A stretch of 61,229 bases of DNA, counting the filler, from Bonamia ostreae (lineage: Eukaryota): NCBI GenBank assembly GCA_040357525.1. It is 16 parts of 16 records of this genome, joined end to end, with 100 filler letters (N's around TTAATTAATTAA, not from the genome) between each part and the next. Parts side by side here need not be neighbours in the genome. Positions count along the whole stretch, not along the records: positions 23,134 to 26,865 come from JBDODL010000434.1; 15 more parts are not named here. One strand, written 5' to 3'. Below the pieces are notes generated by a model, which had not been told where the DNA came from, did not search any database, and was given only the letters and a program-made list of their open reading frames with translations. Shown piece by piece: positions 23,398 to 25,349 of this stretch; position 1 is the stretch's first letter; the number at the start of each line of letters is the position of its first letter. A program made the position numbers and the translations under genes.

Positions 23398-23959
23398 CTT
23401 TTGGCGCTTTGATGCCGACTCTTTTAAAAAGGCCTGGACTAGTGAGAGGCAGTTCGACCGTTTCGCGAACATCTCTGATTTGCTTGTCGAGGCCGCCAAT
23501 GTCGGTGTAATTGACCAAACCCGGATCTTCGTTCAACATGTGATAGATCGTCGGGTCGACTTCGCGCGGGAGAACACTCATTATCGTTAAAGTCGAGATT
23601 TCGAGAGCAACGCGGGCTCCTATTTTTAGCTTGCTCCTTGGAATGCGTTCTTTGCAGCCGACGATATAATGCGGACCCGAACTTAGCTTTACGATGTCTG
23701 AACATAAAAATTAGTGAACAGTGTTCGTCCGAAACTTTTTTCAAAATCTCTCCTATTAATTGCCCGACATTTTGAAGCGCTTTAAGATCGCTGTCGATCT
23801 TTTCGTTCAGTTTGGATTTTGCGTTGAGATCCATTCGGTCTTTGATTTTAAGATAGTCGAACATTTTTTGACTCTTTTCTCCAAATCCGCATGTTGCTCG
23901 AAAATCTTGGAATAGTCTTTTATCAGAATTTCCATTTCCGAATGCTCTTGATTCACCAT
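23398..23959 (-). CDS. RPT4: 26S proteasome AAA-ATPase RPT4/PSMC6 (3'-partial)
   Basis: [58 protein letters not shown]; introns 23840-23862 and 23698-23719. Confidence 0.95.
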
Positions 23960-24479
23960 TTCTAGACTAAATTTTAATTGTTAATATAGAGAAAACGTAA
24001 ATAAATTTTTAATGTCCAGATCACTTTTTTTAAAACAAACATGGAGTAGGAAGCGCAATTATCTGGGCTAAAATAATAAAAGAGTAGTTTTGAATCTGTT
24101 TCGGGTTGGTTAAAAAGGTCAAAAATGACCGTTAAGATTTATATTTTTTAATGGCCGTAGTCAATTTTTTTTAATTCGCCGTCTCTCTGACGACATGTGG
24201 CGAAAATTAATGGTCTTAAACTAAAATGATGGTAAATTTATACACATTAGCTAAAATGGCCAAAATCGCTAAATGGGAAAGAATAAAATTTGATAGAATT
24301 GACTTGTCTTGATCTTAATGTCGATTTTGCAATTTGCGTTAATTTGGCTTTTTGGCAAATTTTTGCAAAGTTATCAATCGTTTGTTTGTTGCATTGAACG
24401 TTATTGCTAGATTTGGCAACAACGGTTGAATCCACACAACAAAAATGTAACAAAAAAAGCAGACAACAAGCTAAATTTA

Positions 24480-25349
24480 CTAGTTCCTCTTGTTTAGCAT
24501 CTCCATTAGCTCCTCGTGACGGCGTAGGGCGCTCATCGTCATGCTGAAAATCTCCATTGCCGAACTGCGTCCTTCGATTCCCACCGGAGCAGACTCCATT
24601 CGTACGCGCGGGAGAGACGGAGGCTTTGCCTTTATCGCGTGGATATGTCCCTCAACATGTGCCTCGTAGCCCCTTTCGGTCTCAAAGTTCTTCTGGCAGA
24701 CATCACAGCGCAACGTCGGCCGCCGATCTGCAAAGTCTCTTTGTGCCGGCGTCGCTTGCGAAACTGGAAAGTCATTCTTTTTGCTGCGACAATTAGCGCA
24801 GCTGCACTTTTCATGGCATGAAGGGCAGACCCATGCGCCACTTCAAATTAAATAAAAAACTCTATTTTGAGCTTCTCTGGCGTGTAAAACTTTTCGAGAC
24901 AGCGTTTGCAATATTTCTTTTTGCAGTTCTTTTTCATTGCAAAAAATTTAATTTTTTCAAAAGTTGGTCAAAAATTGTAAATTAACCTTGTTAACGCCGG
25001 ATCCAAGTCGAATATTTTTTGAAGACTTTTCACAGCCGCGAAGGTCGGAAAGCGGCTGCAAAGATTTGCATTGATGGCAACTTTTCCCGTAAACTAAGAA
25101 TTGATTTATTTAACGAGAAGCATTAGCTTGGATTTCGCGAACGGAGGCTTTACGGGCGGGAATCAGTTTTCTTTTGACGTTGTCGTAAAACGGTTTTATA
25201 TCCTCTGCCCGGGATGGCGGAATGAATTTTCCTCCCGTTAGAATCGCTCCTCGCCTCAAAAAATCGACGGAAGCAGATTCTCGCTGCGGCTCTTGTTTTG
25301 ATTGCTCTAAATTGCGAATTTGTTCAAAATTTAGATATTTTTGGGACAT
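24480..25349 (-). CDS. zf-4CXXC_R1 (CDCA7-type) zinc-finger protein with a C-terminal C2H2 finger
   Basis: Removing introns 25094-25114, 24929-24986 and 24841-24860 gives GKSCHQCK...CKKKYCKRCLEKFY...WVCPSCHEKCSCANCR, followed by CDVCQKNF...HVEGHIH. Confidence 0.85.

Follow-up and report, generated by a model that had tools for sequence, protein, structure and literature searches.

Minimal GT–AG splice signals on introns of two length classes in the nuclear genome of Bonamia ostreae

The genes in a window of 61,229 bases from Bonamia ostreae (the whole stretch of DNA analysed here, whose letters include paired runs of 44 N about every 3.8 kb and three runs of 100 N) are interrupted by segments that we interpret, with a probability of roughly 0.8, as GT–AG spliceosomal introns of the nuclear genome, which carry minimal splice signals, fall into two length classes and would be chosen by the mechanism proposed below. 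The window is nuclear DNA of B. ostreae (Haplosporida, Ascetosporea, Rhizaria). Two of its open reading frames (ORFs) are 100% identical to deposited proteins of this species, the ORF at 35087-35449 (-) to P0001 (323 residues, NCBI name 'hypothetical protein MHBO_001646 [Bonamia ostreae]') and the ORF at 23336-23710 (-) to P0079 ('26S proteasome subunit rpt4 [Bonamia ostreae]'). A ciliate, myxozoan or dicyemid source, considered at first, was rejected on the strength of these protein names. Base composition over the whole window is AT-rich (A 34%, T 34%), and since an ORF of 487 codons is open under the standard code at such composition, TAA and TAG are stops. The passages drawn on from the genome report (PMC11069148) describe a genome of 12.2 Mb and 33% G+C, for which funannotate, with published transcriptome reads as the training set, gave 5253 gene models; introns average 2 per mRNA and are called 'canonical introns'.

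We curated 24 introns in the window, three through RNA joints, nine through deposited proteins or homologue alignment and 12 through domain or frame continuity. On positions 23134-26865, contigs of sequencing runs were aligned at 95% likeness, run X4 being taken as RNA on its behaviour and runs X1 and X2 serving as the DNA comparison. The curated introns and one further donor are listed here, beginning with those joined in RNA.

26078..26418 (-): RNA-proven intron of 341 nt, donor GTTTTT, acceptor AAG; X4 joint 26077>26419
26544..26632 (-): RNA-proven intron of 89 nt, donor GTTAGC, acceptor CAG; X4 joint 26543>26633
26717..26768 (-): RNA-proven intron of 52 nt, donor GTCCAT, acceptor AAG; X4 joint 26716>26769
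23840..23862 (-): RPT4 intron 1 of 23 nt, donor GTTCGA, acceptor AAG, phase 1; exact in P0079, gapless in P0089, present in X1 and X2 DNA contigs
23698..23719 (-): RPT4 intron 2 of 22 nt, donor GTTCAC, acceptor CAG, phase 1; P0079 and P0089
36486..36515 (-): glutathione reductase (GSR) intron 1 of 30 nt, donor GTTAAT; exact in P0001 and in 4 of 4 homologues
36342..36422 (-): GSR intron 2 of 81 nt, donor GTTTTT; P0001 and homologues
35869..36130 (-): GSR intron 3 of 262 nt, donor GTTTTT; P0001 and homologues
35717..35741 (-): GSR intron 4 of 25 nt, donor GTAATT; P0001 and homologues
35448..35546 (-): GSR intron 5 of 99 nt, donor GTTTTA; P0001 and homologues
35046..35109 (-): GSR intron 6 of 64 nt, donor GTTCGC; 4 of 4 homologues, P0001 reading into the intron
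34862..34890 (-): GSR intron 7 of 29 nt, donor GTAAAT; 4 of 4 homologues
25094..25114 (-): intron of the zf-4CXXC gene, 21 nt, donor GTTAAA, acceptor TAG, phase 1, in-frame stop at +2; frame continuity and ab initio prediction
24929..24986 (-): intron of the zf-4CXXC gene, 58 nt, absent from an earlier note on this DNA, donor GTTAAT, acceptor AAG; ab initio prediction and frame continuity only
24841..24860 (-): intron of the zf-4CXXC gene, 20 nt, donor GTTTTT, acceptor AAG, phase 2, stop at +10 if retained
6785..6807 (-): PP2C intron of 23 nt, donor GTTTTG; frame continuity and ab initio prediction, outside the Pfam PP2C match
7096..7167 (-): PP2C intron of 72 nt, donor GTAACA; Pfam PP2C 100-192 and 189-254 on the flanking ORFs
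8386..8408 (-): intron of a Surp-module gene, 23 nt, donor GTAACT; Surp 2-28 of 53 stops 3 residues short of the ORF end, ab initio prediction
31896..31927 (-): TIP41 intron of 32 nt, donor GTTAAT; TIP41 91-140 of 174 runs to the final residue of the upstream ORF, open frame past the acceptor
40476..40495 (+): RhoGEF intron of 20 nt, donor GTTTCT; RhoGEF profile 91-141 and 142-180 meet at its two edges
43378..43398 (-): USP intron of 21 nt, donor GTTTTT, in-frame stop at +18; UCH 1-238 of 254 stops 5 residues short of the ORF end, ab initio prediction
45526..45547 (+): RPN6 intron of 22 nt, donor GTTCTA; RPN6_N 30-76 in the downstream ORF, frame continuity
53369..53390 (-): aldo-keto reductase (AKR) intron of 22 nt, donor GTTGCA; Aldo_ket_red resumes (position 106) at residue 18 of the downstream ORF, ab initio prediction
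57267..57287 (+): protein kinase intron of 21 nt, donor GTATTT, in-frame stop at +5; Pkinase 18-59 from residue 6 of the downstream ORF
23397..23398 (-): donor 3' of RPT4 exon 3, GTTTTA; an X4 contig departs from the DNA at 23398 with 255 loose letters

GT..AG ends were found in all 24 curated introns. The chance of GT plus AG, calculated from dinucleotide frequencies, is 0.0016 per placement, and most edges were picked under the GT..AG rule. The three RNA joints alone were obtained independently of this rule, and all three are GT..AG. A single 1913-letter X4 contig omits 26078-26418, 26544-26632 and 26717-26768 alike, while the DNA runs X1 and X2 read through them, and the skipped pieces end in CT..AC on the plus strand, corresponding to GT..AG when read on the minus strand. 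Deposited proteins splice introns of 22, 23, 25, 30, 81, 99 and 262 nt exactly, four of them tiny. P0079 matches the DNA letter for letter only with 23840-23862 and 23698-23719 removed, and P0089, an unrelated RPT4 homologue, has no gap over either junction. Moreover, the ORFs flanking 23698-23719 both match a single human RPT4 chain (PDB), one over residues 2-32 and the other over residues 34-132, leaving one residue for the split codon. Introns placed by unrelated homologues coincided with the proposed coordinates for GSR (7 of 7) as well as for RPT4 (2 of 2).

The earlier note, made from the sequence alone, had proposed that removal of 13 such short segments restores conserved protein motifs. 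A scripted check confirmed that each of the 13 starts with GT and ends with AG on the gene strand (11 GTT and two GTA, the latter at 8386-8408 and 57267-57287), and removal joined open frames in every case while retention brought a premature stop. Conserved motifs were indeed regained, for RPT4 and GSR by the evidence of deposited proteins and homologues and for most of the others by Pfam continuity, which backs RhoGEF, AKR, UCH, Surp, Pkinase, TIP41, PP2C (at its 72-nt intron) and RPN6_N. The Aldo_ket_red match resumes 2 nt beyond the acceptor of 53369-53390, and in the ORF downstream of 24841-24860 the zf-4CXXC_R1 match opens at residue 3 with profile position 56. Over the whole curated set, a premature stop follows retention in 24 of 24, and each of the four short introns with a length divisible by three has a stop codon in frame. 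Support is weaker for the PP2C intron at 6785-6807 and two zf-4CXXC introns than for the others. PDB searches with four short exon ORFs gave no significant match. The zf-4CXXC ORF at 24480-24842 had no match among the longer proteins searched, and a profile-free search against 1.84 billion representatives yielded no Bonamia model for it, all matches being of C2H2 type with an identity not above 42%. The four tiny segments of 23698-25114 were also present in DNA contigs of two further sequencing runs (X1 and X2), demonstrating that they are not assembly errors.

The introns form two length classes, a tight ultra-short one of 20-32 nt and an ordinary one of about 50-340 nt, with the same minimal ends and both mainly GTT. 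The description 'ultra-small introns' given in the earlier note suits 15 of the 24 (20, 20, 21, 21, 21, 22, 22, 22, 23, 23, 23, 25, 29, 30 and 32 nt) and not the other nine, which measure 52, 58, 64, 72, 81, 89, 99, 262 and 341 nt. The mode lies at 20-23 nt (11 of 24) and no curated intron falls between 33 and 51 nt, in what is a small sample from one window. The accompanying suggestion of intron definition by length cannot hold as a general rule, since introns of 52-341 nt begin with the same donors.

Counts at the splice sites of the 24 introns revealed little beyond the terminal dinucleotides. Position +3 is T in 18, A in five, C in one and G in none; position +4 is T in nine, A in nine, C in five and G in one; position +5 is G in three; and the last exon base is G in 10, a weak preference. 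No consensus at +4 to +6, no common interior sequence and no branch motif stood out in these 24 AT-rich introns, whose A+T content is 78% vs 60% in the adjoining exon sequence (40 nt per side). At the 3' end, position -3 is A in 17, T in five and C in two, the frequency of A exceeding the 45% measured over the window's AT-rich GT..AG segments as a whole (p 0.0095), and positions -15 to -4 are 47% A and 47% pyrimidine, so that there is no pyrimidine tract. The usual consensus of U2-type introns, a GTRAGT donor, a tract and YAG, is not a strict requirement of the class. The departure from it reported in the earlier note is plain in the curated set, in which purine at +3 (5 of 24) and G at +5 are uncommon and the acceptors, mainly AAG, are A-rich without a tract. 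Its remark that only a few donors other than GTT occur, all GTA, was right about the GTT majority and incomplete about the remainder, to which 35717-35741, 34862-34890 and 7096-7167 (GTA) and 26717-26768 (GTC) have to be added.

How far the GTT preference exceeds composition, which the earlier note had set as a refuting test, depends on the yardstick. Against the plain T content of intron interiors, T at +3 would be expected at 0.36 (p 1e-4 for 18 of 24), against the window-wide frequency of T after GT at 0.49 (p 0.009) and against the frequency of T after T inside the curated introns, which is 52%, at 0.52 (p 0.019). Dinucleotide odds ratios in the window are 0.53 for TA, 1.43 for AA and TT, 1.64 for CG and 1.35 for GC. 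Because TA is strongly avoided, T follows GT at 49% of all sites (4936 GT sites; 49-51% in ORFs, non-ORF and AT-rich contexts), and A follows GT at 15-19%. T at +3 is thus about 1.5-fold in excess with nominal p values of 0.01-0.02, whereas about two thirds of the GTT frequency is the dinucleotide bias of the genome. 'Mostly GTT' is a correct description and an unusual one among eukaryotes, and roughly two thirds of the effect is expected of any unconstrained position after GT.

In the mechanism that we propose, the consensus GURAGU is left unmatched and a standard U1 (ACUUAC) would form at most two or three pairs with these 5' splice sites; the cited part of bioRxiv 10.1101/2022.06.08.495308 gives GURAGU as the consensus that pairs with this U1 stretch. 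Sites would probably be chosen by the composition step at the intron edges and, across short introns, also by the closeness or short-range pairing of the two ends, with U6, U5 and Prp8 probably checking the choice at a later stage. A branch adenosine would probably be supplied by the A-rich 3' stretch near the AG, as the relevant section of PMC13644364 likewise proposes for the tiny introns of myxozoans and dicyemids. Splicing of at least some tiny introns is probably incomplete. The GTT preference would be mostly the remainder after loss of the +3 purine requirement under the genome's bias against TA and towards TT, and a modest extra preference for U at +3 may exist. A search of the window with Rfam, at the gathering score and at E values up to 1, found no small nuclear RNA (snRNA), only tRNA-His being matched.

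Alternatively, U at +3 could be a selected signal, read either by a U1 with its 5' end altered so as to pair with GUU, in the manner of Entamoeba, or in U1-free choice through U6, in which case the +3 U would wobble-pair with a G of ACAGA. Such selection would account for the excess of T over the expectations of 0.52 and 0.49 and for the scarcity of C or G at +3 (1 of 24 vs 0.24-0.36 expected), and it has a precedent for co-evolved U1 and a U6 pairing argument in Entamoeba, where, in the portion cited of bioRxiv 10.1101/2022.06.08.495308, U1 ACAAAC matches GUUUGU and U at +3 and +4 could add pairs with U6 ACAGA. On the other hand, the ratio of T to A at +3 (18:5) equals the background ratio of GTT to GTA (2431:738), the significance is nominal and the sample was partly pre-selected. 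Bonamia also lacks the extended Entamoeba motif, as the base counts at +4 and +5 indicate, so a changed U1 would gain a single pair at most. On balance we consider a selected U unlikely, although it retains some weight. In a more elaborate scenario, Bonamia would join Entamoeba as a second lineage that, independently, moved its 5' splice site off a +3 purine along with the reader, namely a U1 with A opposite +3 or U1-free selection of GUU sites, one machinery handling introns of 20 to >300 nt with AAG acceptors and little or no role of the U2AF65 type; taken as a whole, this strikes us as more doubtful still.

Several observations weigh against reading the whole set as minimal GT–AG introns with a GTT bias. 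Retention in RNA had been named in the earlier note as a test, and its outcome was divided: the three longer introns are spliced, whereas the X4 contigs on 23134-26865 contain no RNA junction for any intron of 32 nt or less, and the sole RNA contig over a tiny intron (X4, 24631-24903, 0 gaps) retains 24841-24860. Half of the curated introns (12 of 24) depend on domain continuity or frame logic and come mostly from the list in the earlier note, which may favour GTT, while the deposited models and homologue alignments presuppose GT..AG and hence provide no independent test of the edges. When only donors independent of that list were counted (three from RNA, nine from proteins or homologues, and the RPT4 exon-3 donor), T at +3 was found in 10 of 13, with p 0.04-0.06. 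Finally, the ab initio finder used for support is noisy, yielding as many 'introns' with fake donors and leaning to T at +3 by about 0.1. This finder, the second one tried and run with a non-coding background, recovered 12 of the 12 introns verified by then and later just 17 of the 24 curated, including none of the three RNA-proven. Given fake donor or acceptor pairs, it predicted 102-177 'introns', with T at +3 at 0.58-0.61 for fake TT and AT donors and for GT with fake acceptors, and at 0.41-0.43 for CT donors. Its tally (84 predicted introns: GTT 62, GTA 14, GTG 4 and GTC 4) was left unused because of the fake-donor yield, the T lean and the three missed RNA-proven introns. A first finder, with a whole-window background, recovered only two of the seven GSR introns and was discarded. 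A scan of ORFs alone for frame-joining GT..AG was positive at 121 of 608 ORF-pair loci and, since control dinucleotide pairs scored 102-190, had no power.

The divided RNA result bears directly on the possibility that the segments of 20-32 nt are not removed at all, so that the genes are broken or their products shortened and only the longer introns are real. The gap-free passage of the X4 contig through 24841-24860 and the want of an RNA junction at any tiny segment speak for it. It would require, however, that each of 15 genes or sites carries a frame break bounded by GT..AG whose removal restores a conserved domain in register, that deposited models trained on transcripts splice four tiny segments without cause, and that the segments nonetheless occur in the DNA of other runs. 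Contigs show presence and not absence, and contigs with gaps of 20-23 nt are suspected to have failed the 95% likeness rule, in which case the spliced form may have been lost. Moreover, X4 has no cover on 23759-24008 (RPT4 exons 1-2) or on 24904-25758 (upstream zf-4CXXC exons), which gives no evidence either way. An unspliced transcript over 24841-24860 exists at assembled depth, which fits incomplete splicing and is no proof of splicing. Taken together, general retention of the tiny segments is very improbable. Even less credible are U12-type (minor spliceosome) or other non-U2 introns, which the unusual donor and the missing pyrimidine tract might suggest, given that, apart from T or A at +3, the 24 introns have neither a conserved donor over +3 to +8 nor a conserved branch motif, that the same features recur in nearly every intron of the window while minor-spliceosome introns are rare, and that no U11, U12, U4atac or U6atac match was found in the window, which at 61 kb is weak evidence.

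U2-type introns with minimal signals and two length classes can be compared with several known systems. The mikrocytids Mikrocytos mackini and Paramikrocytos canceri (Ascetosporea) belong to the same rhizarian class as Bonamia and likewise have extremely short introns of the GT–AG type; according to the sections cited from PMC10245619, their splicing is incomplete (63% and 37%), only U2, U4 and U6 snRNAs were found, and a reduced spliceosome of this kind offers a rationale for weak or odd signals. The mikrocytid introns described there are all 16 or 17 nt long and highly conserved in sequence, whereas those of Bonamia range from 20 to 341 nt and have only GT(T/A)...(A/T)AG in common. Entamoeba resembles Bonamia in having U rather than a purine at +3 and AT-rich introns (76-83% A/U vs 78% in Bonamia), as stated in the cited part of bioRxiv 10.1101/2022.06.08.495308. 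In that account, Entamoeba is intron-poor and its GUUUGU(U) donors are among the strictest known, 88-90% being exactly GUUUGU, whereas Bonamia donors are biased only at +3 (75% U) and have G at +5 in just 3 of 24.

Myxobolid Myxozoa and Dicyema japonicum, also parasites, have introns with a median of 22-27 nt, a 5' signal of three letters, a 3' AG, a weakly conserved A upstream of the AG and, as in Bonamia, a pyrimidine tract that is missing or very short, in the portion of PMC13644364 consulted. They keep A at +3 ('GTa' in the same source), unlike Bonamia with T in 18 of 24, and since they are animals their tiny introns arose independently. Narrow ultra-short classes near the splicing minimum, like that of Bonamia, are further listed in the cited parts of PMC10245619 and PMC13644364 for Stentor (15-16 nt), Paramecium and the chlorarachniophyte nucleomorph (18-21 nt). 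Lengths in these ciliates and the nucleomorph are almost uniform, whereas in Bonamia numerous introns of 50-340 nt share their ends with the short class. Tiny-intron ciliates and the chlorarachniophyte nucleomorph have GTA as their donor consensus.

Tiny introns and +3 U donors are therefore each already known elsewhere, and introns of Bonamia are already contained in the deposited annotation. What sets Bonamia apart is the combination of a 20-23 nt class beside ordinary lengths, T at +3 and AAG acceptors with no extended consensus. A literature search returned no description of Bonamia or haplosporidian splice sites; it did not cover supplements, which might hold intron statistics. With tiny and ordinary introns side by side under minimal signals, Bonamia looks like an intermediate stage relative to the mikrocytids, which would make it possible to study how introns become smaller and how little signal splicing can work with. 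A U +3 donor with an AAG acceptor and no tract is rare and, if tied to changes in snRNAs or U2AF, would provide a second test case for the co-evolution of splice sites and the spliceosome.

The short introns also affect the existing gene models. Both deposited models that could be mapped in the window (P0001 and P0079) are truncated where the annotation failed to recognise an intron. P0001 (323 aa) continues past AISAG and terminates within the 64-nt GSR intron, so that it lacks the terminal exons to which 4 of 4 homologues align, and P0079 ends by read-through 21 codons into the next intron after GIKAPK. For the multi-intron zf-4CXXC gene, no deposited model was found. With two of two mapped models cut off and a third gene lacking one, the annotation of B. 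ostreae, a regulated oyster pathogen, would gain from splice-aware re-annotation that allows for short introns. Beyond 23398, the X4 contig that leaves the DNA at the RPT4 exon-3 donor runs into an ATPase-coding exon outside the window, and tblastn found no ATPase part of RPT4 anywhere in the window. The absence of this exon suggests that the intron is very long, that the arrangement is nested or that the scaffolding is wrong.

Several minor features were observed around the RPT4 and zf-4CXXC genes. At 24099-24480 (-), an X4 RNA contig runs about 380 nt beyond the zf-4CXXC stop codon through AT-rich, seemingly intergenic DNA, representing either a long 3' UTR or read-through. X4 differs from the window in single letters at 24681, 24751, 24759, 24761 and 24765, all of which recur in the DNA run X2 and are thus strain differences and not editing; the difference at 24630 is in X2 only. 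The 341-nt intron contains a repeat at 26187-26290, over which DNA depth rises several-fold in X1 and X2 with loose ends on both sides; contigs of run X7 aligned to nothing but this repeat (26203-26277), and X4 likewise has contigs that align here alone. The CpG excess of the window (odds ratio 1.64) is unusual at 31% G+C and argues against CpG methylation decay, sitting oddly beside the CDCA7-like zf-4CXXC_R1 gene at 24480-25349.

Elsewhere in the window, there is a sharp step in composition from 42-45% G+C at 1-4000 (ORFs 52-57%) to 23-30% at 9000-31000, and the left, G+C-richer end carries a CNNM-like gene at 1502-3734. Both strands of 3890-6600 hold four or five clustered cysteine-rich ORFs that are paralogous and have a common motif pattern (4128-4598 on the plus strand; 4727-5329, 5250-5546, 5746-6210 and 6320-6601 on the minus strand) and with signal-like or transmembrane-like ends, which may constitute a lineage-specific surface or secreted family. 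A tRNA-His (GTG) lies at 55756-55827 (+), over part of which the ab initio finder wrongly drew a 191-nt 'intron'. Lastly, the ab initio model at 16950-17550 (-) comprises a tandem exon-intron unit in a low-complexity Asn/Lys-rich gene, with near-identical predicted introns at 17424-17541 (118 nt) and 17167-17285 (119 nt).

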